NCBI GenBank assembly: GCA_964584205.1
Contig: CAZOZF010000002.1
Span: forward strand, 160-64,159
Reading direction: 5' to 3'
Origin: an uncultured Verrucomicrobiota bacterium
GTDB lineage: Bacteria > Verrucomicrobiota > Kiritimatiellia > CAIKKV01 > CAITUY01
Length of the DNA: 64,000 bases
Numbering within the stretch: the first letter of the stretch is position 1; each line of letters opens with the position of its first letter. Both the position numbers and the translations under genes were made by a program. This document shows positions 6,952 through 51,847 of the stretch, piece after piece. The notes beneath the pieces were generated by a model, which saw only the letters and a program-made list of their open reading frames with translations, searched no databases and was not told where the DNA came from.

Positions 6952-7019
6952 CAGTGTGGGTTATGAGAAAATAGATGACTGAGGACAAGGTTGGTCTTTC
7001 AGCAAGGGGTGGTGAAGAT

Positions 7020-16199: not shown

Positions 16200-16246
16200 T
16201 TGACCCGATTCGCCCTAAAAAAAACTCATAATGCTCTATGCAGACC
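16200..16246 (+). promoter_or_regulatory. conserved upstream motif copy B (ttgacccgattcgccctaaaaaaaactcataatgctctatgcagacc)
   Basis: ~70 bp upstream of the GH95 start at 16316; contains TTGACC and cATAAT hexamers. Confidence 0.5.
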
Positions 16247-16315
16247 GCCGTGAATGTGGGAGAACGTTTCGAGTTCATTTGCCGATTAATACAATGCAGG
16301 AGAAGGGTGGTCGTA

Positions 16316-18949
16316 ATGAGAAAAATGTCTACGATGGGGTGTATGCATTTCCTGGCGCTTGTGTTTGTAGGGTTTATCATCCCGGCTTTCGCCAGCATGG
16401 AAAATATCCTGTGGTATCAGAAGCCCGCCGGTTACTCCATCAATGAAGCGCTGCCCGTTGGTAACGGGAAACTGGGGGGGCTGATTGATGGGGTGCCAAT
16501 CGTCGAGCGTGTGGTGCTCAACGAAATCAGTCTCTGGACCGGGGATGAAAAGACGGCGACCGGCGGGTACGATCAAATGGGTTCTTACCAGACGCTGGGC
16601 GTTCTCCTTGTTGATACCGCCGCCCGGCTGGGCGAGGATGAAGTAAAGGTGCCGACCGTGATCTGCGCCAGCAGGCAGGAACCCTATTATCAGAGTGAAG
16701 GTATTGCGGCGAGTGTGGACAACAAGCTTGGAACCAAATGGTGTGTAGTGCCCGATGGAGTGCCGCTGATCTGGGAAGTCAGGCTGCCCGAGGCCCGCGT
16801 GGTCAATCAGTACTCGTTCACCTCAGCCCCTGATGTCCCGGAACGGGATCCGTCCACCTGGGAGTTCAGTGGATCCAGCAACGGCAGGGACTGGATCACC
16901 TTGGATCGCCATGAGAATGATAAGCCTTTTACAAAACGCTGCGAAGTAAAGGCTTTTACATGCACGAATACCCAGGCGTTCAAGAGCTACAGGGTGACGT
17001 TTGCTCCCAATAAACGCGTCATGCATTTCCAGCTTTCCGAAATATCCATTCCGGGCGTGGTATTTCCGGCCCGAGAGGCTCCCGCCACGGTGGAGGCCTA
17101 TCGCCGGTCGCTTGATATTTCCACCGCACTGCATTGGGTGTCTTACAAGTTGGGTGACATGAACTGCCGGCGCGAAACGTTTGCCTCGCATCCGGATGAG
17201 GTGATGGTCATGCGGCTGACGGCGGATAAACCCGGGTCATGCAGTGGGGCGGTTCAACTTAAAGGCGGTCACCGTGAGGAGACCCAGGCATTCGGTAATG
17301 GATTGGAATTTTCCGGAGTACTCACCAATAACCTGAAGTACGACACCCGCGTTGTGGTACTGAATGACGGGGGCAAGGTGCGGTCAAGCGAGGGCCGGGT
17401 GTTTTTCGATAAATGTGATAGCGTTACGATCCTGCTGGCGGCCGCTACGGATTATACGCCCGATCATTCCCGAGCCTACCGGGGTGGGGATCCCAAGGAG
17501 ATTGTCGGGAAGCGGCTTGCCGCAGCGGCTAGGAAGACTTATGACGCCCTGAAGACGGCGCATATCAAAGAGTACCAGTCCTATTTCAGCCGGGTGGCGC
17601 TTGATGTCGGGGCGACCCCGGCGGATCGGTTGTCCCTTCCAACCGATAAGCGGAAGAGCCTGCATGCCGAGAAGGGGGGGGATGCCGATCTCGAGGAGTT
17701 GATGTTCCAATATGGACGCTACCTGCTGATCAGTTGTTCGAGACCCGGCGGATTGCCGGCGAACCTGCAGGGGCTGTGGAACGACAACAATACGCCCCCA
17801 TGGCACAGTGATTACCACGCGAACATCAATGTTCAGATGAACTACTGGCTTGCCGAACCGGCTAATCTGTCCGAGTGTCACACGACCTTTTTGAATTTAA
17901 TTACGAGTCAGCTTCCGGCATGGCGCAAGGCAACGGCGGAAGCCAGGGAATTCAAGTCGGAGACAGGTAAGCCGGTGGGGTGGGCCGTCCGGACCTCGCA
18001 TGGCATCAATGGTGACATGGGCTGGCAGTGGGACATCACGGCGAACGCCTGGTATTGCCAGCATTTCTGGTGGCACTATGTCTATACTGGCGACAAGGCT
18101 TGGCTGAAGACTGTGGCCTATCCCATCATCAAGGAAATCTGTGAATTCTGGGAAGTGCGCATGAAGGCGTTGCCGGATGGAACATTGGTGGTTCCGAATG
18201 GCTGGTCGCCGGAGCATGGTCCCGTCGAGGATGGTGTGAGTTACAACCAGGAGATTGCGTGGGATCTCTTTAATAACTTTGTCGCGGCCAGTGAGGCTTT
18301 GGGTGTGGATGCGGTATACCGGAAGAGGATTGCGGATATGCGCGACAAGCTGATGGTTCCAAAAATCGGGAAATGGGGACAGCTCCAGGAGTGGATGGTT
18401 GACCGGGATGATCCCAATGATCACCATCGCCACACCTCGCATCTGTTCGGGCTTTTCCCGGGGGAACAGTTCAGTGTTTCCAAAACTCCCGCCTTGGCGG
18501 CCGGGGCCAAAAAATCACTCGACGCGCGGGGGCCGGTGGGTGATGTCAGGGAGTGGTCATTTGCCTGGCGAACCGCGCTCTATGCCCGGTTGCGTGAGGG
18601 TGAAAGCGCGTACACGATGTTCAGGAACCTTTTGAACGACCGGAATACCTGTCTCAATCTGTTTGGCAATCATCCGCCGATGCAGATGGATGGCAATTTT
18701 GGTATCACCGCAGGGATCTGCGAGATGCTGATGCAGTCCTACACCGGTACGATCGAGCTGTTGCCTGCGATTCCCAGGGCCTGGCCGAGTGGAATCGTGA
18801 AAGGGTTGAAGGCCCGTGGCAATTTCACCGTGGACATTGCCTGGGCCGACGGCAAGGTTGTTTCCTATAGCATTCGTTCTCCGGATCGTCGTAAAGTTAC
18901 GGTGCGCGTTAATGGCGAGGAAAAAATCGTGAAGACGGATGAACTCTAA
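16316..18949 (+). CDS. glycoside hydrolase family 95 (alpha-L-fucosidase/alpha-L-galactosidase type) with an inserted F5/8 type C (discoidin) carbohydrate-binding domain
   Basis: GH95 motifs LPVGNGKLGGLIDG...LNEISLWTGDE, WHSDYHANINVQMNYW and HRHTSHLFGLFPG; F5/8-C-like insert (LGTKWCVVPDGVPLIWEVRLPEARVVNQYSFTSAP...WEFSGSSNGRDW); start set to the Met preceded by an aggaga RBS (ORF-track start 16238 is probably too far upstream). Confidence 0.88.
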   Translation: MRKMSTMGCMHFLALVFVGFIIPAFASMENILWYQKPAGYSINEALPVGNGKLGGLIDGVPIVERVVLNEISLWTGDEKTATGGYDQMGSYQTLGVLLVDTAARLGEDEVKVPTVICASRQEPYYQSEGIAASVDNKLGTKWCVVPDGVPLIWEVRLPEARVVNQYSFTSAPDVPERDPSTWEFSGSSNGRDWITLDRHENDKPFTKRCEVKAFTCTNTQAFKSYRVTFAPNKRVMHFQLSEISIPGVVFPAREAPATVEAYRRSLDISTALHWVSYKLGDMNCRRETFASHPDEVMVMRLTADKPGSCSGAVQLKGGHREETQAFGNGLEFSGVLTNNLKYDTRVVVLNDGGKVRSSEGRVFFDKCDSVTILLAAATDYTPDHSRAYRGGDPKEIVGKRLAAAARKTYDALKTAHIKEYQSYFSRVALDVGATPADRLSLPTDKRKSLHAEKGGDADLEELMFQYGRYLLISCSRPGGLPANLQGLWNDNNTPPWHSDYHANINVQMNYWLAEPANLSECHTTFLNLITSQLPAWRKATAEAREFKSETGKPVGWAVRTSHGINGDMGWQWDITANAWYCQHFWWHYVYTGDKAWLKTVAYPIIKEICEFWEVRMKALPDGTLVVPNGWSPEHGPVEDGVSYNQEIAWDLFNNFVAASEALGVDAVYRKRIADMRDKLMVPKIGKWGQLQEWMVDRDDPNDHHRHTSHLFGLFPGEQFSVSKTPALAAGAKKSLDARGPVGDVREWSFAWRTALYARLREGESAYTMFRNLLNDRNTCLNLFGNHPPMQMDGNFGITAGICEMLMQSYTGTIELLPAIPRAWPSGIVKGLKARGNFTVDIAWADGKVVSYSIRSPDRRKVTVRVNGEEKIVKTDEL

Positions 18950-18972: not shown

Positions 18973-21354
18973 ATGAAGAATCTGATTCGGGCTGTTGGGC
19001 GGGGGATAACGCTCGTGTGTTTTTGTGCGGGTTTGGGTGTCGCCGCGATGGGGGATGAAACCCGTTTGGAGGATCTCCCCAATCTCAATTTGATCAAGAG
19101 TGGCAACAACCAGAAGCCCGGCAAGGATAAGTCGGTTTCCGGCCAGCCACTGCAGATGGGGGGCGAGACGTTTGAGCATGGGGTGGGGGTTCATGCGCCC
19201 AGCGTGGCTCTGTTCAACCTTAATGGGAAGTCCGAGAAGTTCCATGCCGTTGTGGGGGTGAGTGATCTCAAAGGAGAACCCGGCTCGGTGGAGTTTTTCG
19301 CGACGGGCGACGGGAAAGTCCTTTACCGGAGCGGGGTGATCAAGGGTGGCGTGATGAAGGATGGTGTATTGAAGGTAGGCGACAAGCCCAAGGTCATTGA
19401 TCTTAACCTGACTGGGGTCAAACTCCTCCGGCTTGATGTGACCGATGGTCGGGATCAGACTTGGAGCGATCACGCCAATTGGGCCGATGCGGTGTTCACT
19501 TGGAAAGGGGTGGCGCCGGCCTTGATGGAAGTGCCCCTGCCGGAGGCGACCGATCCGCGCTGGCCCCGGTTTGAACGCGGGGTGGATGTCGCGGCCGAAG
19601 AGGCCTATCCTCCCGCCGAGAAGCTGGTCAAATCGCCCGGCGGAACAACCTACTATGTTGATCCGCAGAAGGGGCGTGACGAGAACTCCGGGACCCAGGC
19701 GTCCCTGCCGTGGCGCAACCTGAGAAAGGTAAACCGTCTCCTGCTTGCTGCCGGGGACAGGATTGAGCTGAAGCCTGGCTTCTACGCGGACACGCTGAAG
19801 CCCTCCGGTGCCGGAACGGTTAAACGCCCCATCATTATCCGTTTTGCGCCGGGCGAATATGATTTTCAGCCGAAGACTGCATTTAAACTCAAGCTCCACA
19901 TCAGCAACACGAATGATGATCCGGGTACGCCCAAGGCCATTGCACTGGCCTTCCAGGGGGTTCGTCATGTACTTGTGCTTGGCGGGGCAAAAGGCACCCG
20001 TAGTGACATCTATATGCGCGGAAAAATGATTCAGACGTTTTTCGATCATGTCGAGGATGTCTGCCTACAGGGGTTGGCGTTTGATTATCGACGACCAACC
20101 GTATCGGAATACACCGTGGAGGATGTTGTCGCTGATCATGCCGATCTGGCCATTAACCAGGATTCGAAATATATAGTTGAGAATGACCGCTTGGTGTGGG
20201 TGGGCGAAGGGTGGCGTCATGATGCGTTTCGGCAGAGTGCCCAGCAGCAAGGAGATCCCATTGAGGGAACCTTATGGCGATCAGGGGTCAATTTCAGTAA
20301 AATCTCGAGCGTTGAGGAGTTGGCGGCCAACAAGGTCCGTGTTCGTTTTTCCGAAAACCCCGGTTTCGCCAAAGGCAAGGTTTGGCAGGAACGTGATACG
20401 TACCGCGATTGCGCGGGTTCCTTTGCGCGTAACAGCAAGGACATCACCTGGGAGGATTGCGCCTATCATTTTATGCATGGCATGGGATTGGTGAACCAAT
20501 ATTGCGAGAACCTGACCCTGAAGAAGGTTGAACTGGCGCCACGGCCCGGTTCGGGACGTACCTGCGCCTGTTGGGCAGATGCCATCCAGGTCTCCGGTTG
20601 CAGGGGGAAGTTTATTGCCGAGGATTGCACTTTCTCAGGGACAAATGATGATCCGATCAATGTGCATGGCACGCATTTGCGAATCATAGGGCGGCCGGCT
20701 CCCGATCAGTTGCTGGTAAGGTTCTGTCACTGGCAGACGTACGGGTTCGAGGCTTTTTTTGCTGGAGATGAGGTTGATTTTGTCCGTTCGGATTCCCTGC
20801 GCGTATTTGCCTCCGGTAAGATCAAGAAGGCTGAGTTGAAAGGCGAGCGGGAGATGATGCTCACCTTGGAGCAGCCGGCTCCGGCTGGAATTATGGCTAA
20901 TGATGTCCTTGAGAATGTCACCTGGACGCCCGAGGTCTATGTCCGGAATTGCAAGGTGACCATGTGCTCCACTCGGGGGTTCCTGCTTACCACCCGGCGA
21001 AAGGTGGTGATTGAGAACAATATCTTTAACAAGACCGCGATGGCGGCCATTCTGGTGGCTGACGATGCGCGAAGCTGGTTTGAGTCGGGGCCGGTGCGTG
21101 ATATGACGATCCGCAGCAATACCTTTATTAAGTGTGGAATTTCTATTTCACCCGAAAACATAACGGCCAACCCTGCCGAGCCTGTTCATGAAAACATCCG
21201 GATCGAGGGCAACCTGTTCACGGACAACGGGGTTAGTGCCAAAAGCGTCAAGGGCTTAGTGATAACCGGGAACAGGTCGCCCTCCGGGACGGTGAAAGTC
21301 AATACGACTGCCTGCACGGACGTGATCAATGAAAACAATTCTAGGATTGAATGA
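18973..21354 (+). CDS. secreted NPCBM-domain protein fused to a right-handed parallel beta-helix domain (candidate glycosidase/polysaccharide lyase of unassigned family)
   Basis: Signal peptide; NPCBM/NEW2 signature GGETFEHGVGVHAPSVALFNL...FHAVVGVSDLKGEPGSVEFFATGDGKVLYRSG; PbH1-like repeats (VIENNIFNKTAMAAIL, TIRSNTFIKCGISI, IEGNLFTDNGVSA); stop TGA overlaps an ATG of the next gene. Confidence 0.7.
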   Translation: MKNLIRAVGRGITLVCFCAGLGVAAMGDETRLEDLPNLNLIKSGNNQKPGKDKSVSGQPLQMGGETFEHGVGVHAPSVALFNLNGKSEKFHAVVGVSDLKGEPGSVEFFATGDGKVLYRSGVIKGGVMKDGVLKVGDKPKVIDLNLTGVKLLRLDVTDGRDQTWSDHANWADAVFTWKGVAPALMEVPLPEATDPRWPRFERGVDVAAEEAYPPAEKLVKSPGGTTYYVDPQKGRDENSGTQASLPWRNLRKVNRLLLAAGDRIELKPGFYADTLKPSGAGTVKRPIIIRFAPGEYDFQPKTAFKLKLHISNTNDDPGTPKAIALAFQGVRHVLVLGGAKGTRSDIYMRGKMIQTFFDHVEDVCLQGLAFDYRRPTVSEYTVEDVVADHADLAINQDSKYIVENDRLVWVGEGWRHDAFRQSAQQQGDPIEGTLWRSGVNFSKISSVEELAANKVRVRFSENPGFAKGKVWQERDTYRDCAGSFARNSKDITWEDCAYHFMHGMGLVNQYCENLTLKKVELAPRPGSGRTCACWADAIQVSGCRGKFIAEDCTFSGTNDDPINVHGTHLRIIGRPAPDQLLVRFCHWQTYGFEAFFAGDEVDFVRSDSLRVFASGKIKKAELKGEREMMLTLEQPAPAGIMANDVLENVTWTPEVYVRNCKVTMCSTRGFLLTTRRKVVIENNIFNKTAMAAILVADDARSWFESGPVRDMTIRSNTFIKCGISISPENITANPAEPVHENIRIEGNLFTDNGVSAKSVKGLVITGNRSPSGTVKVNTTACTDVINENNSRIE

Positions 21355-21401
21355 AGGGCTGTCTACCGATTCCTTCAGTTCGGATGAAGGGTAAGGATCT
21401 C

Positions 21402-24400
21402 ATGAATCAGCTGCTTAATACTTTTTGGGTCATCCTGTTTCTCGGTCTCTTGGGTTATCCCCGGGTATCGGCAGGGGGCGAAACACGACTGGAAGATCTG
21501 CCCAGCCTCAATCTGGTTGAAAATGGAGGGGGAGTTGCGAAAAGGGATAGAGCGACAAATGATCATCCGTTGCAGATGTGTGGTCAGAAGTATGAACATG
21601 GACTGGGCGTTCATGCCCCGTGCGTTGTGATGTTCAGTCTTGATGGGAAAGTGGAGAAATTTCATGCCCTGATCGGGTTTAGTGATTTTCCGGGTGATCG
21701 CGGGTCTATCGAATTCATGATGATCGGCGACGGGAAAGTTCTGTATCGGAGCGGCGTCATGAAAGGCGGTTTAAATAGCAAAGGCGTGATGACGTTTGCT
21801 GTCGACAAGCCGAAGATTGTGGATGTTCCCCTTGCGGGCATCAAGAAGCTCAGGATTGAAGTGTCTGATACCGGCGATAACAAATGGGGTGATCATGTCA
21901 ACTTGGTGAATGCCCTGTTTACGTGGGAAGAGACGCCCCCCAGGATCGTGGATGTGGAGGAATATGTGGGGCACGCTTTTCCTCCCGTCGGCAACACCAT
22001 GGGTACGGGGGGGGAACAGGTAGTCAGCGTTCCGTGGACCGGGAAGTGGATCGGGCCAGCCAAAGCCGATGCGAATACGTGGATTTGTTACCGCAAGAAT
22101 TTCGAGGTGGGAAGTGTTCCTGCATCGGTGCCGGCTCGCATCGCGGTCGATTCAAAATACTGGTTGTGGATCAATGGCAAGCTGGTGGTGCGCGAAGGTG
22201 GCCTCAAGCGCGGTCCGGCGCCGAATGACGGATATTACGATGCGGTGGAACTTGCGCCCTACCTGAAGAGGGGAAGTAACACGATAGCCGTCCTGGCCTG
22301 GTATTTCGGCAAGCAGGGGTTCTCTCATAAGAGCAGTGGCAAGCCAGGGTTTGTGATGGAGGCCAAGATCGATAAGGCATCTGTTGCAACCGATGGAGCC
22401 TGGAAGATGCGGATCCATCCGGCATTTGGTACGGCGGGTGAGCCCTTGTCGAATTACCGGCTTCCGGAAGCCAGTATTCTTTTTGATGCGACGAAGGATA
22501 TCGGAGCTTGGATGGAGCCCTCTTATGATGATTCCGGATGGAACGTTCCAGTAACGTCGGGGAGCCCGCCGGTGGCGCCGTGGGGAAAGCTCGTGCTTCG
22601 GCCGGTTCCGCAATGGAAGGATTTTGGGCTGAAAGCCTATACCAATGCGGCGGCATTTCCGGCGGTTAGTGATGGCAAAGTGATCAAGGCCGTTCTGCCT
22701 TACAATGCCCATGTGACCCCATATTTCAAGATTGAGGCGACGGCAGGCCAGAAGATCGATATCCGTACCGACGACATCAAGGGTGGCGGCGAATTCAGTG
22801 TTCACGCCGAGTACATCACCCGGGACGGGGTGCAGGAGTTTGAGGCCCCGGGCTGGATGAATGGCCATGTCGTCGAGTATACGATTCCGGCTGGTTCCAA
22901 GATTCTGTCGCTGCTGTACCGTGAGACCGGGTATAATGCTGAGTTTGTAGGCTCGTTCCGATGTGAAGACCCTTTCCTTAACACGCTCTGGGAGAAATCA
23001 AAACGGACGCTTTATGTCACCATGCGGGATAACTACATGGACTGTCCGGATCGAGAGCGGGCGCAGTGGTGGGGCGATGCGGTCAATGAACTCGGTGAAG
23101 CATTTTACGTCTTTGATCCGCCTGGCTATCAACTCGCGCGCAAGGGAATTCTTGAATTGGCAAATTGGCAGAGGCCTGACAAGACCATGTATTCTCCCAT
23201 CCCTGCCGGAAACTGGTGGGCGGAACTGCCTCCTCAAATACTGGCCAGTGTCGGGAAATATGGTTTTTGGACCTATTATTTCTATACCGGGGACGCCGAA
23301 ACAATACGGGAGGTGTATCCCCATGTCCGTGATTACCTGACGGTCTGGAAACTGGACGAGGACAGTCTTGTAATCCACCGCAAAGGCGACTGGGATTGGT
23401 CGGATTGGGGGAGCCAGATTGACGTAAGGTTGTTGGACAGCGTGTGGTACCACCTGGCGCTCCAGGGGGCGATCGAAATGGCCAAGTTGTGCGGGGCGGA
23501 AGGCGATTTACCGGCATGGCAGGCCCGGCTAAAGGCTGTGGAAAAGGGGATCAATACGAAATTATGGAACGGGAAGGAGTACCGTTCGCCCGGCTACAAG
23601 GGGGATACCGATGACCGCGGGAATGGTCTGGCGGTGGTGGCCGGGATCGCTGGACCAGACAAGTATGCGGCATTGCGTGAGGTGCTCGACGCTCACCGAA
23701 ATGCCAGTCCCTACATGGAGAAGTATGTGCTTGAGTCCCTTTTCATGATGGGTGAAGCGCAGCTGGGTCTCGACCGAATGAGGCAACGCTATGTCAAAAT
23801 GGTCGGCAGTGAGATCACCACGCTTTGGGAAGGGTGGGATGGCTATGGTGGTTGTAACGGCTATAACCATGCCTGGAGCGGTGGGCCGCTGACGATGATG
23901 TCCCAGTATGTGATTGGGGTGGCACCAGACAAGGTGGCTTATGAGCAGTACCATGTACTGCCTCAGTTGGGGGATTTGACGACTCTGGAGGGTGTTGTCC
24001 CGACGGTAAAGGGTAACATCCAGGTTTCGCTGAAACGTGATGCGGCTTCATTCGGTCTGAAGTTGCTGTCGCCGAATGGAACGAGGGCTGTGGTTGGGCT
24101 GCCGCAGGAAAAAGGGCGGAGGATCGTCAGTGTGACCCTCAACGGAAAGACGGTTTGGAAGAAGGGTAAGCCGGGAGAGCCGGTCCGTGGCATGGCCTGC
24201 AAGGGGGAAGACGAACGCTATTGCCGTTTTGAGGTGGTTCCTGGCTCGTGGAGTTTCAGCGCTCTGTATGATGGGGTTTCGTCGATTCCTGTCGCTCTAA
24301 CTGCTGCCCAGCTTGCTGAATACCCGCTGAAACTCCGGGAGATCCGTGTCAGGGATCCATTCATTCTCGCCGATCAAACAACGAGCAACTATTATCTCTA

Positions 24401-25217
24401 TGCCCAATGCGGGAACCGGTTGCTTAATGATAATCTTGGGATCGGGGTAGAGGTCTATCGCAGTAAGGATCTGGTCAACTGGGCTAAGCCCGTGCCGGTT
24501 TTTGAGCGGCCTACATCGAATTTCTGGGGGGGCAAGGAAGTTTGGGCGCCTGAAGTCCATAAGTTGGGTGACGCCTATTTCATGTTCGTTTCATTTCCCG
24601 GACGACAAGGCGGACGGGGTACACAAATCCTGAAGGCTCAACGACCAGAGGGACCTTTTGTGATTGCGGGTGAAGGGGCGAACACGCCGCCAGAGCAACG
24701 GGCTCTGGATGGCACTCCCTGGGTCGATGCCAATGGTGCGAATTGGCTGGTTTATTGCAATGAGTGGTGTCAGGTCGGGGATGGCACCGTGCGTGCGATA
24801 CGGATGTCTTCGGATTGGATGACCCGACAGGGTGAGTCATATCTGCTTTTCAAGGCCTCTGAAGCGCCATGGGTCGGGCCGTATAGCGATAAGAAATATG
24901 TTACCGATGGTCCGTATTTGTATCGGACCAAGGGCGGAAAAGATGGTAAAGGCAAACTACTTATGATCTGGTCCAGTTTCGGTAAAGGTCGCGATTATGC
25001 GGTGGGGCTGGCCGAGTCACAAAGCGGGAGAGTCGAGGGACCATGGCTCCAGTCATGGGAGCCCCTGTTCCCAAGCAATGGCGGACATGGCATGTGCTTT
25101 CAGGATTTTTCCGGGAATCTCCGGTTGGTGTTGCATCAGCCGAATCAATCCCCCAACGAGCGTGCGAAACTTCTCAAGCTGAAAGAAGTAGAGGGGCGCC
25201 TGGTGGTGGAGAAGTGA
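21402..25217 (+). CDS. secreted tri-modular glycosidase: NPCBM + GH78-like (alpha-L-rhamnosidase-type (alpha/alpha)6) + C-terminal GH43 beta-propeller
   Basis: Start chosen at the Met giving the signal peptide MNQLLNTFWVILFLGLLGYPRVSA (ORF-track start 21351 overlaps the upstream stop). NPCBM: YEHGLGVHAPCVVMFSLDGKVEKFHALIGFSD...GSIEFMMIGDGKVLYRSG. GH78-like: WICYRKNF...WLWINGKLV and MDCPDRERAQWWGDA. GH43: IRVRDPFILADQTTSNYYLYAQ...VWAPEVHKLGDAYFMFVS...DGPYLYRTK. Confidence 0.75.
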   Translation: MNQLLNTFWVILFLGLLGYPRVSAGGETRLEDLPSLNLVENGGGVAKRDRATNDHPLQMCGQKYEHGLGVHAPCVVMFSLDGKVEKFHALIGFSDFPGDRGSIEFMMIGDGKVLYRSGVMKGGLNSKGVMTFAVDKPKIVDVPLAGIKKLRIEVSDTGDNKWGDHVNLVNALFTWEETPPRIVDVEEYVGHAFPPVGNTMGTGGEQVVSVPWTGKWIGPAKADANTWICYRKNFEVGSVPASVPARIAVDSKYWLWINGKLVVREGGLKRGPAPNDGYYDAVELAPYLKRGSNTIAVLAWYFGKQGFSHKSSGKPGFVMEAKIDKASVATDGAWKMRIHPAFGTAGEPLSNYRLPEASILFDATKDIGAWMEPSYDDSGWNVPVTSGSPPVAPWGKLVLRPVPQWKDFGLKAYTNAAAFPAVSDGKVIKAVLPYNAHVTPYFKIEATAGQKIDIRTDDIKGGGEFSVHAEYITRDGVQEFEAPGWMNGHVVEYTIPAGSKILSLLYRETGYNAEFVGSFRCEDPFLNTLWEKSKRTLYVTMRDNYMDCPDRERAQWWGDAVNELGEAFYVFDPPGYQLARKGILELANWQRPDKTMYSPIPAGNWWAELPPQILASVGKYGFWTYYFYTGDAETIREVYPHVRDYLTVWKLDEDSLVIHRKGDWDWSDWGSQIDVRLLDSVWYHLALQGAIEMAKLCGAEGDLPAWQARLKAVEKGINTKLWNGKEYRSPGYKGDTDDRGNGLAVVAGIAGPDKYAALREVLDAHRNASPYMEKYVLESLFMMGEAQLGLDRMRQRYVKMVGSEITTLWEGWDGYGGCNGYNHAWSGGPLTMMSQYVIGVAPDKVAYEQYHVLPQLGDLTTLEGVVPTVKGNIQVSLKRDAASFGLKLLSPNGTRAVVGLPQEKGRRIVSVTLNGKTVWKKGKPGEPVRGMACKGEDERYCRFEVVPGSWSFSALYDGVSSIPVALTAAQLAEYPLKLREIRVRDPFILADQTTSNYYLYAQCGNRLLNDNLGIGVEVYRSKDLVNWAKPVPVFERPTSNFWGGKEVWAPEVHKLGDAYFMFVSFPGRQGGRGTQILKAQRPEGPFVIAGEGANTPPEQRALDGTPWVDANGANWLVYCNEWCQVGDGTVRAIRMSSDWMTRQGESYLLFKASEAPWVGPYSDKKYVTDGPYLYRTKGGKDGKGKLLMIWSSFGKGRDYAVGLAESQSGRVEGPWLQSWEPLFPSNGGHGMCFQDFSGNLRLVLHQPNQSPNERAKLLKLKEVEGRLVVEK

Positions 25218-25259
25218 TGTCGTAAATAAATGGAAAATCGTTCTGCTAAGCGTGTAAAT

Positions 25260-26849
25260 ATGAAAAAAATCGGGATGTCGGCCTTGCTAATGTTAATGAG
25301 CCTGTCGGCCTATGCCGACGTAACCTTGCATGGATTATTCACGGATCACATGGTCCTTCAGCGCGCCATACCGGTTTCGGTCTATGGCAGGGCTGAACCA
25401 GGAGAGAAGGTGACCGTCTCCTTTTCTGGCCAGGTGAAATCCGCCATTACGGATAAAGATGGCAATTGGGCCATCAGGCTTGACGCGATGAAGGCCTCAA
25501 CGAACTCTGCCATAATCAGCATTGTCGGGAAAAACAAACTGGTCCTCAATAATGTGGTTGTGGGGGACGTCTGGATTTGTTGCGGTCAGTCCAATATGGA
25601 ATTCCTGCTGGGGCATTGTGGGCGGCCGGATGACGTCAAGGAAGCTGACTACCCGCTAATTCGGCAGTTCTCCGTGCCTCACGATTTTGCCGGGTACCGG
25701 AAGACGGATGTCAAGGGCAGTTGGATGACTTGTACGCCCAAGACGGCTGGAAACTTCACTGCGGTAGGTTATTATTTCGCCCGAAAAATTAACCGCGAAA
25801 CCGGCATTCCGATTGGACTGATCAGGAGCGTGTCGAGCGGGACATCCATTGAGCCTTTCTGCTCTGCGGAAGGATTGGCTTCCATTCCCGAACTGGCGGA
25901 AGAAAAGGGGCGGCTTGATAAAACGATGGTGGAATACCGTAACAATGTGTCGAATACCCTTTCCAAGCTGGAAATCTATATCGCGGATGTGCGCAAAGCC
26001 CTCGCTGGTAATACGGTATTGCCCGATGCGGTCCAGATTCCCGGGAATCCTGGAACCGGCCCCTGTAGCTGGCTTTGTGTTTATAATGGCATGATTCACC
26101 CCCTCATCAACTTCAGGATCAAGGGGGCGCTCTACTATCAGGGTGAGACCAACGGCAGTGAGGAAAACGGATATTTTCACAAAATGCGCGCGCTTATCGG
26201 GGGCTGGCGCAAAGCATGGAACCAGGGCGACTTCCCGTTTTATTTCGTTCAGCTTCCCAACTACAGCAATCCTGTAAGCCGTCCGGACGGTGGTGATGGT
26301 TGGGCCAAAACCCGTATGGGCCAGTTTAAAACACTGGCTGTCACCAACACCGGGATGGCGGTAACGATCGAATTGGCCGACGTTGGTAACCCCGGCAATG
26401 TTCATCCCACGAATAAGCGGGATGTGGGTGAGCGTCTGGCGCTCTGGTCCCTTGCCAAGGACTACCCTGCGACGACGCTCAAGTCAGGTGGCAAGGCGGC
26501 CGATCTCGTCTACAGCGGTCCATTGTATAAGGAGATCAAGATCGAGGGCGGTAAGATCCGTGTCATATTCGGGAGTGTCGGTTCCGGGCTGATTGTGGCT
26601 ACCAAGAAGGGGTATGAGCCCGTGGTCAAGGATCCACAGGGCAAGCTCCAGAGGTTTGCCATTGCCGGTGAAGACAAGAAATGGGTTTGGGCGGATGCCG
26701 TTATCGAGGGTAAGACCGTCGTGGTTTCCAGCCCTGAAGTTCCCCGGCCGGTAGCGGTTCGCTATGCCTTCTCAACTAATCCTGATGGCTGCAACCTTTA
26801 CAACAACGAAGGTCTGCCGGCCTCTCCGTTCCGTACGGACGAATGGTAG
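25260..26849 (+). CDS. sialate O-acetylesterase-like (DUF303/SASA, SGNH-type) carbohydrate esterase
   Basis: Signal peptide MKKIGMSALLMLMSLSAYA; hallmark GDVWICCGQSNMEF block of the 9-O-acetylesterase family; ORF-track start 25230 moved to the signal-peptide Met. Confidence 0.8.
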   Translation: MKKIGMSALLMLMSLSAYADVTLHGLFTDHMVLQRAIPVSVYGRAEPGEKVTVSFSGQVKSAITDKDGNWAIRLDAMKASTNSAIISIVGKNKLVLNNVVVGDVWICCGQSNMEFLLGHCGRPDDVKEADYPLIRQFSVPHDFAGYRKTDVKGSWMTCTPKTAGNFTAVGYYFARKINRETGIPIGLIRSVSSGTSIEPFCSAEGLASIPELAEEKGRLDKTMVEYRNNVSNTLSKLEIYIADVRKALAGNTVLPDAVQIPGNPGTGPCSWLCVYNGMIHPLINFRIKGALYYQGETNGSEENGYFHKMRALIGGWRKAWNQGDFPFYFVQLPNYSNPVSRPDGGDGWAKTRMGQFKTLAVTNTGMAVTIELADVGNPGNVHPTNKRDVGERLALWSLAKDYPATTLKSGGKAADLVYSGPLYKEIKIEGGKIRVIFGSVGSGLIVATKKGYEPVVKDPQGKLQRFAIAGEDKKWVWADAVIEGKTVVVSSPEVPRPVAVRYAFSTNPDGCNLYNNEGLPASPFRTDEW

Positions 26850-26880: not shown

Positions 26881-29800
26881 ATGATGATTTCCGTTGCGCG
26901 CATGAAGCCAATATTGGCAATCCTGGGTCTAAGTGTGATGCTGTTTCGTCTTTCCGCGGTAGGGGGCGAAACACGACTGGAAGATCTACCCGATCTCGAG
27001 CTTGTTGAAAATCTCGATAAAACTCCGCTCAAGGATCAGTCGGCCTCATGGACGCCCATACAAATGGGCGGTGAGAAATTTCAACATGGGTTGGGGACTC
27101 ATGCACCGTTTGTCGCCATGATCAGGCTTGACGGGCATACCGGGAAATTTCATGCCGTCGTTGGTGTGAATGGTATGACGAAAGATCGCGGATCGGTGGA
27201 GTTCATCGTGAGTGGTGATGGCAAGGTCCTGTTCCGCAGCGGTGTGATGAAGGGCGATGTGGTGAAGGATGGCAAGGTGACCATCCCTGCCGACCTGCCC
27301 AAGGTGATCGATCTTGATCTGACGGGAGTCAAGCGGCTCAAGCTTGAGGCGACCATCGGCGGCGACAACACCTGGGGCGATGATGCCAACTGGGCTGATG
27401 CGATGTTCACGTGGAAAGGTCAAGCGCCCAGAATCGTCGAAATCGTGGATGATGCCAGCAGTGTTGCCGGTGATGCGCCTCCCGTGGTTAAGTCACCCGA
27501 TGACACGATCTACGTTCCGGAATCCGGGACGAACCGTGTTCCAGGTGCCAAAGTTGATGGGCCGCGGTCTAAAGCAGGGAAGAATGCGGCACCGTCGGCG
27601 CCTGACCGGCTGACTGTCGAAGGCGTGCGTGAGCCGATGGGCATCGATAACCCTGCCCCCGTATTCGGCTGGGTCGCCTCGCATGTGGTTCGTGGGCAGA
27701 AGCAGCGCGGCTATCAGATCCTTGTGGCGTCCAATAGAAAGATCATTGATGCGGATAAGGGGGATGTCTGGTCAATTCAGGAGAAGGAATCGTCACAACA
27801 ATGTGCGATTGCCTATGCCGGGCCTTCCTTGGCGAGCCGGACGCGATATTGGTGGAAGGTACGGGTATGGGATGAGGGCGGCAGTGTTTCGCCCTTCAGC
27901 CAGCCGGCGACGTTTGAGACGGCGATGATGAAGCCGACGGACTGGAAGGCCCAGTGGATCGGCGGTGATTTTACCCGGATGCGCAAGGAGTTCGTAGTGG
28001 ATCCGGTAAAGACGATTGCCCAGGCGCGTGCCTATGTCTCGGGTCAGGGGTATTATGAATTACGGCTTAATGGGAAGAAGGTGGGTGACCATGTCCTGGA
28101 TCCTGGCTATACCGACTACAAATTTCGAGCCCTGTACAGTACCTATGACGTCAAGGAACTGCTTAAGCCCGGCGCCAATGCGCTGGGGGTCATGCTGGGA
28201 GACGCCTATCTGATCAGGTGGGAGCTCAAGCAGCCGTCCGATAAAATGGCGGTCGTGCAGATTGAGGTGAAGTATACCGATAATACCACGGCGACTGTTG
28301 TTACTGATCCGGGTTGGCTGGGAGAGAACCGTGGACCGATGGTCGCGAACAGTGTGTATGTTGGCGAAGTATATGACGCGAGGTTGGAAGATGCCTGGGA
28401 TCTGCCGGGATATTCTGGAACCGGTTGGACAGCAGTCATGGTCAAGACGCCGCCACCGATTGTGAATGCCCAGCTGCAGGCGATCAAGGTGGTTGATACA
28501 CTGAAACCGGTCAAGATGAGCGGGAAGGATGGGGATTACATCTTCGATTTCGGGCAGAATATCGCCGGGTGGCTCAGGATTTCGGCAGCGGCACCGGCTG
28601 GCACTGTCATGAAGATGGATTATGGCGAGGGGGATTGGCCCGCCAGCAGCCAGAAGGATCAGTATACTTTCAAGGGCGGGGGCGTGGAAACTTGGGAGCC
28701 GCGGTTTACTTACCATGGTTTTCGGACCGCTAAGCTTTCCGGAGTGACGGGGCTTACGAGCAATAGCGTGGTTGCCTGTGTGGTGCATAGCGCGGTCGAG
28801 CCCGCCGGTGATTTCACCTGCTCTTCGCCGATGCTCAATAAGATTCACAAGGCCTTTCTTTGGACTCTTGTAAACAATATGCACAGCATCCCCACCGATT
28901 GCTGTCAGCGTGACGAACGTAAGGGTTGGTTGGGCGATGCACTGGTCACGGTGGAAGCGGCGTGCCTGAATCTCGATATGAAGGCGTTCATGGCAAAATG
29001 GTTCCGTGATATCCAGGATTATCAGGATTTCCGGAATACCAATGGGACCGTTGCGAATATTGCGCCCTGTCCCACATTTGAGTTAACCCAACCGGGCCGC
29101 CGCAATTGGGAATCCCAGGATATCCCGTGGAATTCGGCGGCGGTATCCATTCCGTGGGACTTGTACATGGCTACGGGTGACAAGATCCTGTTGGCTAAAC
29201 ATTATGGCATGATGAGGCGCTACGTGGAGTATGTCCGTTCCGTTTCGCCGGAGAATATCTGCCGGTCTAATCGCTGGGGCGACTGGACCGGCGGCCCCAC
29301 TGAGGCGGCTTTGCTGTCGACCGGCTATTACTACCGCTGTGCCGATCTGCTCTCGCGAACTGCTTTGGAACTGGGAAAAACTGAGGATGCCGAAACCTAT
29401 GCGAAGCTGGCGGTGGATATCAAGGCGGCCTTTAACAAGCGATGGCTCAAGTTCGATCGCTATTACAACAAGAACGAACAGGTGGCCAATGCGATGGCGC
29501 TTTCTTTTGATCTGGTGCCAGCCGAGCGCAAGGGGGCCGTGCTGGCCCGCCTGAAACAGGGGATTGAATACAAGGGCGGGCATTTGACCACCGGTGTGGT
29601 GGGGACGCATTGCCTGATGAACGCGCTTTGGCGGAATGAGGCAATCGAGACGGCCTATACCCTCGCTAACCAGAAGACCGCGCCCAGCTGGGGCAACATG
29701 ATTGAAAAAGGTGCCACGACCATATGGGAGTTCTGGGATGGGCACGGCTCCTGGAATCATCCCATGCTCGGTGGCCCTGTTGATGCCTGGTTCTACAAGG

Positions 29801-30162
29801 GGGTATTGGGAATCTATTCGACCAAGCCCGGATATGAGGAGCTGGCGATCCGGCCCCAGATCGGCGGTGGTTTGACATTTGCCAAGGGGTATGTGCAGAC
29901 CCCGCGGGGTAAGGTGGCCTCGGAATGGCAGGCCAATGGCACCTCGGTCACGTTGAATGTAAGCATTCCCTTCAACAGCAAGGCCGCCGTCAGTTTCCCG
30001 AAACCAGCGGCCGGTGTTGTCGCTATTTATGAGGGAAGCACCTTGGTCTGGAAGAATGGTGTCCTGGTGGCAAAAACCGTAGGAATGTACGGCGCGAGTG
30101 AGGACGGGAACTACATCCGGTTTATCGTTGGCTCGGGCGATTATTGTTTTAGACAGATGTGA
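26881..30162 (+). CDS. secreted NPCBM + GH78 alpha-L-rhamnosidase
   Basis: aggag RBS 7 nt upstream; NPCBM (FQHGLGTHAPFVAMIRLDGHTGKFHAVVGVNG...GSVEFIVSGDGKVLFRSG); GH78 N-terminal (PVFGWVASHVVRGQKQRGYQILVAS...RYWWKVRVWDEGG) and catalytic hallmark IPTDCCQRDERKGWLGDA. Confidence 0.88.
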   Translation: MMISVARMKPILAILGLSVMLFRLSAVGGETRLEDLPDLELVENLDKTPLKDQSASWTPIQMGGEKFQHGLGTHAPFVAMIRLDGHTGKFHAVVGVNGMTKDRGSVEFIVSGDGKVLFRSGVMKGDVVKDGKVTIPADLPKVIDLDLTGVKRLKLEATIGGDNTWGDDANWADAMFTWKGQAPRIVEIVDDASSVAGDAPPVVKSPDDTIYVPESGTNRVPGAKVDGPRSKAGKNAAPSAPDRLTVEGVREPMGIDNPAPVFGWVASHVVRGQKQRGYQILVASNRKIIDADKGDVWSIQEKESSQQCAIAYAGPSLASRTRYWWKVRVWDEGGSVSPFSQPATFETAMMKPTDWKAQWIGGDFTRMRKEFVVDPVKTIAQARAYVSGQGYYELRLNGKKVGDHVLDPGYTDYKFRALYSTYDVKELLKPGANALGVMLGDAYLIRWELKQPSDKMAVVQIEVKYTDNTTATVVTDPGWLGENRGPMVANSVYVGEVYDARLEDAWDLPGYSGTGWTAVMVKTPPPIVNAQLQAIKVVDTLKPVKMSGKDGDYIFDFGQNIAGWLRISAAAPAGTVMKMDYGEGDWPASSQKDQYTFKGGGVETWEPRFTYHGFRTAKLSGVTGLTSNSVVACVVHSAVEPAGDFTCSSPMLNKIHKAFLWTLVNNMHSIPTDCCQRDERKGWLGDALVTVEAACLNLDMKAFMAKWFRDIQDYQDFRNTNGTVANIAPCPTFELTQPGRRNWESQDIPWNSAAVSIPWDLYMATGDKILLAKHYGMMRRYVEYVRSVSPENICRSNRWGDWTGGPTEAALLSTGYYYRCADLLSRTALELGKTEDAETYAKLAVDIKAAFNKRWLKFDRYYNKNEQVANAMALSFDLVPAERKGAVLARLKQGIEYKGGHLTTGVVGTHCLMNALWRNEAIETAYTLANQKTAPSWGNMIEKGATTIWEFWDGHGSWNHPMLGGPVDAWFYKGVLGIYSTKPGYEELAIRPQIGGGLTFAKGYVQTPRGKVASEWQANGTSVTLNVSIPFNSKAAVSFPKPAAGVVAIYEGSTLVWKNGVLVAKTVGMYGASEDGNYIRFIVGSGDYCFRQM

Positions 30163-30315: not shown

Positions 30316-32385
30316 ATGCAAATTGTGCCTGCGGTTCTCTCTCTTACACTCGTCGGGATCATCGGTGTCGGGTCGACCTTGGGCGCGGCTTCATCGGCGC
30401 CACGTGAGCTTTCCGCGCCGGCGGATATTATCTATGCCAAGGTTATGCCTGGTAGGGCCACCGCCATTCAGTCGGGCCGGAATTTCGTCCTGGCGAACAA
30501 TGTGCTTGAGATGGGGTGGTCGCTGGAGGCCGGGCATTTGCGGCTGACCCGTATTGCGGATCGGATGAACGGACGTTCCTATCTCCAGAGCAATGAGGTG
30601 TTTGAAGTCCAGTTGGATAACCGGACCAGGATTTCCTCGTCCGCTTGCCAGCTTGTAGGATCGCCGACGCTTGAGGTGATCACCCCCGTGTCTGATTCTG
30701 CCTGTGCGGCGATGCATTTAGGTGGCTGGAAGATTGCGGCCCGGTTCAAGCATGAAGCCGCCGGCTTAACGGTTCAATGGAATGCTGAACTCCGGGACGG
30801 GTCGCACTATGTGCGCCAGATTCTCCGTATCGAAGGGGCAAAGGGAACGTTATCCGAGGTCAACTGCCTGGAGACCAACGTCGGGCGGGCATGGAATGAG
30901 GGCTCGGTTTTGGCCGGCAATCCCGTATGCAATGATCATCTGTTCATGGGCCAGGAATTGCCGATGTCGAAGAATGTGGTGAAGAGTGGGGTGCTTTCTG
31001 GCGATTCCGGAGCGGTTTCATGTGGCTTGTCCTGCAAGCTTCCGCTTCAGACCGGCAAGGCGTATGAGTTTTCGTCAGTTCTGGGCGCTTATCCTGAAGG
31101 GCAACGTCGCCGTGCCTTCCTGCGGTACCTGGAGCGTGAACGGGCCCGGCCTTATCGGCAATTCCTGCACTATAATTGCTGGTTCGATCTTCACATCAAA
31201 CTCAATGAGCAGGATATCTTGAAGAACGTCCAGGCATTTACCGAGGAAATGACGGTCAAGCGGGGAGTTGCGATGGATTCATATGTGTTGGATGACGGGT
31301 GGGACAATCCACGTGAAGGATTCTGGACGATTGACAGGAAGAAATTCCCGTCGGGATTTGATACGGTTACGTCGGAGCTGGACCGTGTGAATTCGCACAT
31401 GGGCATCTGGATATCACCGTTGGCCGGGTATGCCTTCATCGGGGAGCGGGTGGAGCATGCCAGTAAGCTGGGCCTGGTGCGTGCAGGTTCGTTTCTTGAT
31501 CTGTCATATGCTCCGTACTACGAGTGGTTCAGGGATTTCTGCGCAAACATGGTGAAGACCAATAAGGTGAATTATTTCAAGTGGGATAAGGCCGGCGAGG
31601 GGGCTTCGCCGCATTTCATGGCCCTCCTGTCATGCGCCCGGGAATTACGTCAAATTGACCCCAATCTCTTTTTCAATGTTACCGTGGGAACCTGGGCGTC
31701 GCCGTTCTGGTTGAATGTGATCGATAGCACCTGGCGCGGTGGGGAGGATGTTGGCTGGGACTGGACTTGTAAGGGGAATGACCGCGAGAAATGGCTCAAT
31801 TACAGGGATGGTGTGACCTATCGGAATGTGGTCAAGGCAGGGCCTCTCTATCCCTTGAATTCGATCATGAATCATGGAATTGTCCATGCGTCACTGGGTG
31901 CGGCGGGACGTGCGGCCGGCACGGGAACGGATCTGCGCAATGAGGCGCGTTCATATTTCGGGTCGGGAACAGCGCTTCAGGAGCTGTACATCCAGCCGAG
32001 CATCATGACGTCCCAGGCGTGGGACACCGTGGCGGCAGCGGCGAAGTGGGCGCGTCTGAATGCCGATGTCCTGGTGGATACGCACTGGGTGGGCGGGGAT
32101 CCCACTAACCGCGAGATTTATGGCTGGGCGTCATGGACGCCGCAGAAGGCGACTCTCACTTTGAGGAATCCGGATGACCAACCGCGTGAGATCACGCTGG
32201 ATGCCGTTGAGGTGTTTGAATTGCCCTCATTTGCCGCGAAGGATTATGTAATGACGAGCCCCTATGCGGATCAACGGATCCAGAAGGTGGAAATGAAGGC
32301 CGGAAACCCAAGCGTGTACTCGCTTCAGCCTTTCGAAGTGCTTGTGCTGGAGTCTAGTCCAACGAAGGATAAATATATCAGATAG
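30316..32385 (+). CDS. secreted clan GH-D-like glycoside hydrolase (paralog of 1342..3489)
   Basis: aggag RBS; signal peptide; FLRYLERERARPYRQFLHYNCWFD...YVLDDGWDN; C-terminal blocks shared with 1342..3489. Confidence 0.6.
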   Translation: MQIVPAVLSLTLVGIIGVGSTLGAASSAPRELSAPADIIYAKVMPGRATAIQSGRNFVLANNVLEMGWSLEAGHLRLTRIADRMNGRSYLQSNEVFEVQLDNRTRISSSACQLVGSPTLEVITPVSDSACAAMHLGGWKIAARFKHEAAGLTVQWNAELRDGSHYVRQILRIEGAKGTLSEVNCLETNVGRAWNEGSVLAGNPVCNDHLFMGQELPMSKNVVKSGVLSGDSGAVSCGLSCKLPLQTGKAYEFSSVLGAYPEGQRRRAFLRYLERERARPYRQFLHYNCWFDLHIKLNEQDILKNVQAFTEEMTVKRGVAMDSYVLDDGWDNPREGFWTIDRKKFPSGFDTVTSELDRVNSHMGIWISPLAGYAFIGERVEHASKLGLVRAGSFLDLSYAPYYEWFRDFCANMVKTNKVNYFKWDKAGEGASPHFMALLSCARELRQIDPNLFFNVTVGTWASPFWLNVIDSTWRGGEDVGWDWTCKGNDREKWLNYRDGVTYRNVVKAGPLYPLNSIMNHGIVHASLGAAGRAAGTGTDLRNEARSYFGSGTALQELYIQPSIMTSQAWDTVAAAAKWARLNADVLVDTHWVGGDPTNREIYGWASWTPQKATLTLRNPDDQPREITLDAVEVFELPSFAAKDYVMTSPYADQRIQKVEMKAGNPSVYSLQPFEVLVLESSPTKDKYIR

Positions 32386-47259: not shown

Positions 47260-47345
47260 ATCCCGTTTGTGGGAGATTGACCGTCACAAAGAAGCTGATG
47301 AGTGATGGGGTTGAATCGCATTCAAACCTAGCGGAGGAAAGTTCC

Positions 47346-48386
47346 ATGAACCGTATGAAAGCCTTGGTAAAGCGCAACGCCACTCCAGGTCTTTGGCTGG
47401 AGGATGTGCCCTTTCCTGAGGTTGGGATTAATGATGTCCTGATCAAGGTATTCCGGACTGGGATTTGTGGCACTGATTTGCATATATACAACTGGGATGC
47501 ATGGGCTCAGAAAACCATCCCGGTTCCCCTCGTGATTGGTCATGAATTTGTCGGGACGATTGTGGAGGTCGGGGCGAACGTGAAGGATTTTCATTCTGGC
47601 GATATTGTCAGCGGGGAAGGACATGTTGTTTGTGGGCGATGCCGGAACTGCCTGGCCGGACGTCGTCACCTGTGCAAGGATACCCAGGGCGTGGGGGTTA
47701 ACCGGACTGGGGCGTTTGCGGAGTATCTGGCGTTACCCGTAACCAATGTGTGGGGACATGCGCCGGGGCTCGATCGTGATATCCAGTCCATTTTCGATCC
47801 CTTTGGGAACGCTGTTCATACCGCCCTTAAATTTGAATCGCTGGGGGAAGACGTCCTCATCACTGGAGCCGGGCCCATCGGAATCATGGCGGCGGCTGTG
47901 GCCAAGCATGCCGGGGCCCGGTATGTTGTCATTACGGATACCAATCCCTACCGACTCGATCTGGCCCGGAAAATGGGGGTGACGTTGGCGGTCGATCCGA
48001 CCCGGGAGAGTCTGCCAGAGGTTCAGAAGAAGCTCGGCATGAAGGAAGGGTTTGATATCGGATTGGAAATGAGCGGGAATCCTGGCGCCTTTCGTGATAT
48101 GCTGGCCAACATGGCACACGGGGGCAAGATTGCGATGCTGGGTATCCCTCCGGAATCGGGCACCATGGACTGGAATAAGGTCATTTTCAATATGTTGACG
48201 ATCAGTGGGATCTACGGGCGGGAGATGTATGAGACCTGGTACAAGATGACAGCGCTTTTGCAGTCCGGACTGGATATTAGCCAGATTGTGACCCATCGAT
48301 TCCACTATACGGACTTCCAGAAAGGGTTTGATGCGATGCTTTCAGGGAACTGCGGGAAAGTGGTGCTGACCTGGTGTGAGGGGTGA
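47346..48386 (+). CDS. tdh: L-threonine 3-dehydrogenase
   Basis: Colinear similarity to E. coli Tdh along the full length ([58 protein letters not shown]...[21 protein letters not shown]...[25 protein letters not shown]); ggagg RBS ~9 nt before this Met (ORF-track start 47277 is too far upstream). Confidence 0.93.
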
Positions 48387-48389
48387 TAT

Positions 48390-51823: not shown

Positions 51824-51847
51824 TGTAGTCGGAAATTGGAGGTTAGC

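Follow-up and report, generated by a model that had tools for sequence, protein, structure and literature searches.

An NPCBM, a GH78-type and a GH43 module on one chain in a glycosidase gene cluster of an uncultured Verrucomicrobiota bacterium

The gene described here lies at positions 21402-25217 on the forward (+) strand of a 64,000-nucleotide stretch of DNA (hereafter the window) from an uncultured Verrucomicrobiota bacterium of the class Kiritimatiellia (assembly GCA_964584205.1, contig CAZOZF010000002.1, positions 160 to 64,159). The gene was confirmed to be real and intact, and it places on a single chain a carbohydrate-binding module of the NPCBM type, a catalytic module of the glycoside hydrolase family 78 (GH78) type and a five-bladed propeller of the family GH43. 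We consider it fairly probable (approximately 0.6) that the product is an exported, exo-acting, bifunctional debranching enzyme of three modules, belonging to a large glycan-degradation cluster of a freshwater bacterium of the Planctomycetes-Verrucomicrobia-Chlamydiae (PVC) group. This reading is carried by the undisturbed reading frame, the domain architecture, the fold, the conservation of residues, the purifying selection along the whole chain and the recurrence of the fusion in other proteins.

According to the mechanism proposed here, the protein would be exported, judging by eye from its putative signal peptide, and the NPCBM module, of the CBM51 type, would tether it to a galactose-bearing heteroglycan. 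The GH78 module, which resembles the rhamnosidase RhaB, would cleave off terminal alpha-L-rhamnose in an inverting hydrolysis, E552 being the acid and E810 the base. The GH43 module, also with inversion, would take off a furanosyl or pentosyl residue close by, alpha-L-arabinofuranose being the most likely one, with D985 serving as the base, D1103 as the pKa modulator and D1169 as the putative acid. With both activities on one tethered chain, the same side chain could be debranched sequentially. The sugars named here are those that family membership suggests for the two modules. All the parts are of known kinds: GH78 of the RhaB-like branch, GH43 of a clade with Asp at the general-acid position that is typified by the structure 5C0P, and NPCBM/CBM51.

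Gene and domain layout

A single unbroken open reading frame (ORF) spans 21351-25217 on the + strand. Its first ATG, at 21351, overlaps the stop codon of the upstream gene by 4 base pairs (bp) and gives a protein of 1288 amino acids (aa), identical to a protein from NCBI (P0001) whose contig is 64.6 kb long. Translation from 21402 gives 1271 aa and a stop codon, and amino acids are numbered from this start throughout. The 1272 aa reported in the initial annotation, which had been made from the sequence alone, described one long frame correctly but counted the stop codon as a residue. The N-terminus, MNQLLNTFWVILFLGLLGYPRVSA followed by GGETR, resembles a Sec signal peptide when read by eye, and in all close homologues a leader of 20-30 aa precedes ETRLEDLP, where the NPCBM module begins. 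The three-module architecture proposed in that annotation stands, as the frame is unbroken and the Pfam domains exceed their cutoffs (domains given here as Pfam matches are those above the gathering thresholds). The motifs quoted in it were also found at their places: DCPDRER at aa 547, DPFIL at 985, WAPEV at 1048 and TDGPY at 1168. The features of the gene are as follows.

21402-25217, + strand: whole gene, 1271 aa and stop, with an alternative upstream ATG at 21351
21402-21473, + strand: putative Sec signal peptide MNQLLNTFWVILFLGLLGYPRVSA, judged by eye from the sequence
21480-21923, + strand: NPCBM/NEW2 (CBM51-type) module, aa 27-174 (PF08305, E 1e-29)
22014-22946, + strand: GH78 N-terminal beta-sandwich region, aa 205-515 (RhaB alignment, weak PF08531)
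22947-23912, + strand: GH78 (alpha/alpha)6 catalytic domain, aa 516-837 (PF17389 Bac_rhamnosid6H, E 6e-34)
23040-23078, + strand: subfamily hallmark DCPDRERAQWWGD with D547, E552 and D559 (E552, codon 23055-23057, putative general acid)
23829-23831, + strand: E810 in TTLWEGW, putative GH78 general base, aligned with E841 of RhaB
23916-24134, + strand: GH78 C-terminal beta-sandwich, aa 839-911 (PF17390 Bac_rhamnosid_C)
24324-25214, + strand: GH43 five-bladed beta-propeller, aa 975-1271 (PF04616 Glyco_hydro_43, aa 982-1249, E 1e-32)
24354-24356, + strand: D985 in RDPF, GH43 general-base Asp
24708-24710, + strand: D1103 in LDG, pKa-modulator Asp by assignment
24906-24908, + strand: D1169 in TDGP, Asp at the canonical general-acid position, aligned with the Glu of EGP

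Several ORFs of 130-238 aa are present on the minus strand inside the gene and were taken as antisense shadow ORFs. Rfam and tandem-repeat searches gave no matches, and the count of promoter and terminator matches was not clearly above the chance expectation.

Integrity of the frame and selection

Orthologues in which the three modules share one frame free of stops are found in a lake metagenome bin (L001, 82% identity) and in a metagenome-assembled genome labelled 'Akkermansiaceae' (L002, 79% identity), and the tri-modular fusion is thus present in three assemblies, the present one included. In comparison with these two, the ratio of nonsynonymous to synonymous substitution rates (dN/dS, Nei-Gojobori) was 0.15-0.16 for the NPCBM module, 0.06-0.08 for the GH78 parts and 0.08-0.10 for the GH43 module, the values being approximate since dS is approximately 1-1.6 and near saturation. 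All the modules are under purifying selection and none of them looks degenerate. A frameshift or stop between the modules and a decayed module had been left as concerns by the initial annotation. The former was seen neither in the window nor in L001 and L002. Of the latter there is no sign, with dN/dS within 0.06-0.16 along the chain and the change of one catalytic residue in the GH43 module, described below, extending over its whole clade.

Several close relatives have an NPCBM-GH78-like protein with no GH43 module at its end (proteins P0011-P0015, loci L003 and L071), as would be expected if the long frame were an artefact of assembly or of a frameshift that joined two adjacent genes. Such an origin is effectively refuted. 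There is no stop or frame change in the window, and the architecture recurs in approximately ten protein clusters, drawn from NCBI, JGI, ENA and Logan. In addition, the in-frame fusion in L001 and L002, at approximately 80% identity and with dS above 1, indicates that it has been maintained over a long divergence.

The GH78-type module

To judge by its sequence, the middle module is a genuine, if divergent, GH78 of the RhaB-like branch. The catalytic domain family PF17389 was matched with 118.3 bits (cutoff 24.5) over positions 3-339 of the 339 in the profile, and PF17390 with 33.2 bits (cutoff 22.1), while the match to the N-terminal sandwich family PF08531 was weak (22.2 bits vs. a cutoff of 25). 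Among solved structures RhaB of Bacillus sp. GL1 (PDB 2OKX) is the nearest relative, with a whole-protein phmmer E value of 8e-51. The match falls into two stretches of 67 and 113 bits, which together cover nearly the entire GH78 module; the stretch over aa 354-902 has an E value of 7e-32 and the one in the N domain of RhaB an E value of 6e-18, and the N-terminal sandwich region aligns with RhaB residues 6-198 and 367 onward. Both beta-sandwiches of RhaB, N- and C-terminal, are matched, as is its (alpha/alpha)6 domain. The sequence match is, however, distant, the GH78 module described here is approximately 200 aa shorter, and RhaB has neither the NPCBM nor the GH43 module.

At the residue level D547, E552, D559 and E810 align with D567, E572, D579 and E841 of RhaB. 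Cui et al., as cited in PMC3663046, proposed Glu572, together with Asp567 or Glu841, as the key catalytic apparatus of RhaB. The comparison with a characterised rhamnosidase that the initial annotation had recommended thereby finds the proposed catalytic Asp and Glu residues all kept (D547, E552 and E810). Among 98 homologues of approximately 54-71% identity, D547, E552 and E810 are conserved in 100% of the sequences, and the whole motif DCPDRERAQWWGD, together with E810 and H823, is invariant or nearly so.

The module does not have the canonical GH78 motif DCPQRDERxGWxGD, DCPDRERAQWWGD being one residue shorter. RhaB carries DCPSYEQVFWVGD at the same position, with equal one-residue-shorter spacing. 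Since this shortened motif occurs in an accepted member of the family, DCPQRDERxGWxGD does not define GH78 as a whole. The hallmark had been singled out as a variant of DCxQRDERxGWxGD, which is correct, but it is one with a precedent, and the branch marked by the shortened motif already includes a characterised enzyme, namely RhaB. The further suggestion that the variant denotes a distinct subfamily agrees with its invariance in the 98 homologues, which makes DCPDRERAQWWGD the hallmark of a large GH78 subfamily. Indeed, 2263 matches to this subfamily were obtained at E<=1e-10 among the scored candidates, and at approximately 47-58% identity it occurs in Verrucomicrobiota, Planctomycetota, Bacteroidota and many Streptomyces. 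The homologues bear the automatic source names 'alpha-L-rhamnosidase' or 'family 78 glycoside hydrolase'.

A canonical GH78 is encoded two genes downstream in the window (26881-30162). BLASTP aligned the 755-aa GH78 module end to end with this neighbour at 23% identity (E 1e-27), with one gap within the motif and with TTLWEGW...NHAWSGGP over TTIWEFW...NHPMLGGP. The two share the domain order and the fold family, and both catalytic Glu positions align. They differ in that the module studied here has the one-residue deletion in the motif and QWW in place of GWxG, and has no Ig_Rha78A_N or concanavalin-like (PF05592) domains in Pfam.

The GH43 propeller and its general-acid position

The C-terminal module matched PF04616 with 113.7 bits (cutoff 32.2), and NCBIfam matches to it were sub-threshold only. 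The nearest solved protein is 5C0P, an 'endo-arabinase' of Bacteroides thetaiotaomicron (phmmer E 4e-64). An AlphaFold2 model of the module, built with 70 homologues, had a predicted local distance difference test (pLDDT) value of 95.5 and a predicted template modelling score (pTM) of 0.93, and in Foldseek it matched 5C0P with template modelling (TM) scores of 0.85/0.92; all 50 listed matches were GH43 structures. The confident model and its superposition on 5C0P indicate that the propeller is complete. In addition to the 40% identity found by Foldseek, the module shares with 5C0P an Asp at the general-acid position and the SEAPW stretch; 5C0P differs in being a standalone protein of approximately 298 aa and in having WAPD where the module has WAPE. 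It is a structural-genomics entry, and a literature search on it found no paper. The next Foldseek matches include HoAraf43 (4QQS), the exo-alpha-L-arabinofuranosidases AtAbf43C (9NXG/9NXJ) and the S. avermitilis enzyme 3AKF. 4QQS, 9NXG and 3AKF are likewise five-bladed propellers (TM approximately 0.71-0.77), but they are only 18-22% identical and use Glu (EGP) as the acid where the present module has Asp.

Of the three catalytic positions, one is of the usual kind and a second is putatively so. D985, conserved in 100% of the homologues, falls on the general-base Asp in the DP motif of 4QQS. D1103 was assigned as the pKa modulator from its position and conservation, being 100% conserved among the homologues and Asp in 158 of the 167 aligned stretches of divergent representatives. 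At the third position the general-acid Glu of GH43 (in EGP or EAP) is replaced by Asp, as phmmer places the Glu of EGP in 4QQS, 4NOV and 9NXJ onto D1169 of TDGPYLY. The GH43 motifs, described initially as clear, are thus present, but DGPYLY hides an Asp where other GH43 enzymes have their general-acid Glu. An Asp is also found there in 5C0P (VTDAPFIY), in 112 of 115 homologues (97%) and in 141 of the 156 non-gap aligned stretches of divergent 50%-identity cluster representatives. In the AlphaFold2 model a predicted beta-strand starts with D1169, and it is at the start of such a strand that GH43 enzymes normally have their general acid. The clade comprises 359 representative clusters (50% identity) at E<=1e-30, and 5C0P belongs to it. 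Since Asp is held in approximately 90-97% of this clade and in 5C0P, the change is a trait of the clade and not decay of the protein in question; the catalytic apparatus is partly canonical, with a Glu-to-Asp change that is stable across the clade. Literature searches on an Asp general acid in GH43 gave nothing relevant and no description of such a case.

Another candidate for the general acid was E1154 (in ASEAPW), which phmmer placed on the EAP Glu of 3QZ4 (REAPY). It was ruled out because this position is variable in the 115 homologues (43 Asp, 34 Glu and 26 Gln) in comparison with the 97% conservation of D1169, and also because the EGP Glu of the three other PDB enzymes falls on D1169, which starts the predicted strand.

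Replacement of the canonical Glu by the shorter Asp, with a Glu in SEAPW too poorly conserved to substitute for it, could also mean that the GH43 module is lectin-like and has no catalytic activity, and the protein would then be a rhamnosidase of single function that carries two binding modules. We regard this as rather improbable. The Asp is retained in the close homologues and in the divergent stretches at the frequencies given above, with the base and modulator Asp conserved alongside it, and the few members that have Glu at the site show that the position tolerates only acidic residues. Most members of the clade are standalone proteins of approximately 300 aa, which is the pattern expected for autonomous enzymes, and the dN/dS of the module (0.08-0.10) likewise does not fit a loss of function.

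Occurrence of the GH78-GH43 fusion

In a search with the full-length protein, PF17389 and PF04616 occurred together in 11 of the best 120 protein clusters (P0001-P0010 and P0016), and most of the other listed matches were single GH78-type proteins of 750-950 aa. Members of the GH43 clade are mostly standalone proteins of approximately 300-370 aa, and less than 1% of the clade is fused to a GH78-type module. Together with a single case among 48 multidomain GH43-clade representatives, these counts are in line with the initial remark that the two catalytic domains are uncommon on one chain. Related chains illustrate how the modules have been combined.

P0010, 1823 aa: NPCBM, GH78-like, GH110-like and GH43, in JGI and ENA (locus L083, 8001-13472)
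P0014, 1516 aa: NPCBM, GH78-like and GH110-like
P0016, 1142 aa: reverse order, GH43 (53-348) and GH78-like (379-1142), 57%/53% identity, on three contigs (locus L081, 1786-5214)
P0255, 974 aa: a distant GH78-type domain (20% identity) followed by GH43 of the same clade (43%)
P0037, P0052 and similar, 1750-1880 aa: RhaB-like and canonical GH78 on one chain

GH78-type modules and the GH43 clade have been fused at least three times, once in the reverse order. Independent recurrence of this kind speaks for a real functional connection of the two activities and makes a branch containing rhamnose and arabinose, as had been suggested initially, a plausible target. The fusion is rare and lineage-limited, but not unique. 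The GH110-like module of the upstream neighbour is joined to a chain of the target type in P0010 and P0014. The close relatives L003 and L006/L071 keep the NPCBM-GH78-like gene without GH43, and in L006 a GH43 of the same clade is located approximately 5 kb upstream, within the same cluster. A protein of 370 aa (P0121, 79% identity) was considered as a standalone orthologue and rejected, as it starts in the GH78 C-terminal region, at query aa 897, and is therefore probably a fragment of a fused protein.

Evidence against a bifunctional enzyme and alternative specificities

Several points weigh against a bifunctional enzyme acting on rhamnose and arabinofuranose. To our knowledge, neither of the two subfamilies has a biochemically characterised member. 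The canonical general-acid Glu is absent from the GH43 module. Only 1 of the 48 multidomain representatives of the GH43 clade has a GH78-type partner, and the partners are very diverse (HYR, GH3, GH28, GH10, GH5, GH2 and others). None of the 75 loci of more distant GH78-like relatives (approximately 47-58% identity) has a GH43 of this clade within 10 kb, which indicates that the GH78-GH43 coupling is lineage-limited. Finally, GH43 subfamilies differ in specificity, with alpha-L-arabinofuranose-, beta-D-galactofuranose- and beta-xylose-active enzymes and galactanases among them (PMC6442616).

Rather unlikely, in our estimate, is that one or both of the catalytic modules have a specificity other than the family name implies. 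The substrate of the GH78-like module might, for example, be a different 6-deoxy-hexoside or a rhamnoside that bears substituents, and for the GH43 module a beta-D-galactofuranosidase or beta-xylosidase activity is conceivable. The GH78 module is only approximately 23% identical to its canonical neighbour and its match to RhaB is distant; with a canonical GH78 already in the cluster, a second enzyme of identical specificity would be redundant. Newly screened GH43 subfamilies have acted either as alpha-L-arabinofuranosidases or as beta-D-galactofuranosidases (PMC6442616). On the other hand, the catalytic and motif residues of the rhamnosidase are strictly conserved, and exo-arabinofuranosidases are the nearest GH43 folds.

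A more far-reaching proposal can be put forward only tentatively. The Asp-for-Glu GH43 clade and its repeated fusions to GH78 in both orders might represent an unrecognised enzyme pair for a motif of rhamnose and a furanoside in a galactose-decorated algal or plant glycan, possibly with an altered catalytic geometry or a new specificity.

The NPCBM module and the surrounding gene cluster

The NPCBM module matched PF08305 with 103.7 bits (cutoff 23.9) over positions 2-137 of the 137 in the profile. Its PDB sequence matches are the CBM51-containing proteins 2VMG/2VMH, 7JS4 and 8PVS. As in a CBM51 glycosidase of Clostridium perfringens (2VMG/2VMH) and the GH110 alpha-1,3-galactosidase B (8PVS), the NPCBM/CBM51 module is attached to an exo-glycosidase; here, in contrast, it is N-terminal and common to four to seven enzymes of one PVC gene cluster. 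In the window, four enzymes have it directly after the signal peptide: the GH110-like enzyme at 18973-21354, the protein described here, the canonical GH78 at 26881-30162 and a GH27 at 36709-38709. These four modules are 31-59% identical to each other, and that of the present protein is 52% identical to the modules of both flanking enzymes. NPCBM looks like a shared targeting module of one regulon. In the relative L083 (13511-20010) the module is also found on two GDSL esterases and a GH95-like enzyme. A literature search for GH78, GH43 and NPCBM in Kiritimatiellota gave nothing relevant.

The cluster consists of 19 co-directional genes at 6975-59266, most of them spaced by 3-150 bp, with four gaps of 153-428 bp. 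The genes next to the one studied here are the following.

18973-21354, + strand: upstream neighbour, NPCBM and GH110-type alpha-galactosidase-like enzyme (beta-helix and GLAA-B barrels; Pfam)
25230-26849, + strand: downstream neighbour, SASA-type carbohydrate esterase, syntenic in L001, L002 and L006
26881-30162, + strand: NPCBM and canonical GH78 alpha-L-rhamnosidase with the motif DCCQRDERKGWLGD (Pfam, motif)

The contents of the cluster are AraC/XylR regulators, two PATR-repeat surface proteins, GH95, the NPCBM-GH110-like enzyme, the NPCBM-GH78-GH43 protein, the SASA esterase, the NPCBM-GH78, a GH36-like protein, a DUF3472/PA14 protein, the NPCBM-GH27, GH36, a GH127-like protein, two GH2, an alcohol dehydrogenase, an aminotransferase, two GH95-like proteins and a GDSL esterase. 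The set of GH95, GH110, GH127-like, SASA, GH78, GH27 and GH2 recurs in relatives in a shuffled order. Going by the family names, the repertoire would span alpha-galactose-, alpha-fucose/L-galactose-, alpha-rhamnose- and arabinose-active enzymes as well as esterases. A heteroglycan that is branched, acetylated and galactose-bearing would suit this repertoire, for instance a phytoplankton exopolysaccharide or a plant glycan resembling arabinogalactan or pectin.

The PATR-repeat proteins at 6975-8723 and 8862-16145 (+ strand) head the cluster, the second being 2427 aa long with invasin-D3 and Big_1 domains, and they may be surface or adhesin-like parts of glycan capture. A gene of the URO-D family (PF01208) at 3486-4568 (minus strand) adjoins the AraC/XylR regulators, and another is found beside P0016 (JGI sample 3300059473); a role in sugar O-demethylation is speculation. 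The zinc alcohol dehydrogenase and the class I/II aminotransferase at 47277-49577 (+ strand), located 3 bp apart among the glycosidases, suggest downstream metabolism of a released sugar or its derivative. Weak family matches were obtained for 40990-44193, 49592-51823, 51836-53962 and 30316-32385. They include GH127 at approximately 58 bits over a partial profile, Melibiase at 26.7 bits and a GH95 catalytic domain at approximately 95 bits vs. 469 bits for the true GH95 at 16238-18949, and these members of the cluster may be divergent, uncharacterised subfamilies. The 715-aa ORF at 1342-3489 and the 253-aa ORF at 60324-61085, both on the minus strand, had no Pfam match at E<=0.01. The guanine-cytosine skew is strongly positive over most of 16001-60000 (approximately 0.1-0.19, with a dip near 42-44 kb), which coincides with the uniform + strand coding.

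Significance

The protein described here provides a handle on the function of two branches, one of GH78 and one of GH43, that are large, uncharacterised and abundant in freshwater PVC bacteria. The Asp in place of Glu at the general-acid position of the GH43 branch poses a small mechanistic question. The most interesting outcome is the Asp-variant GH43 clade and its repeated fusion to GH78 modules; in other respects the protein is what a polysaccharide-degradation cluster ordinarily contains. If both of the catalytic modules are active, the protein would be a pointer to a glycan motif in which rhamnose stands next to a residue of the arabinofuranose type.

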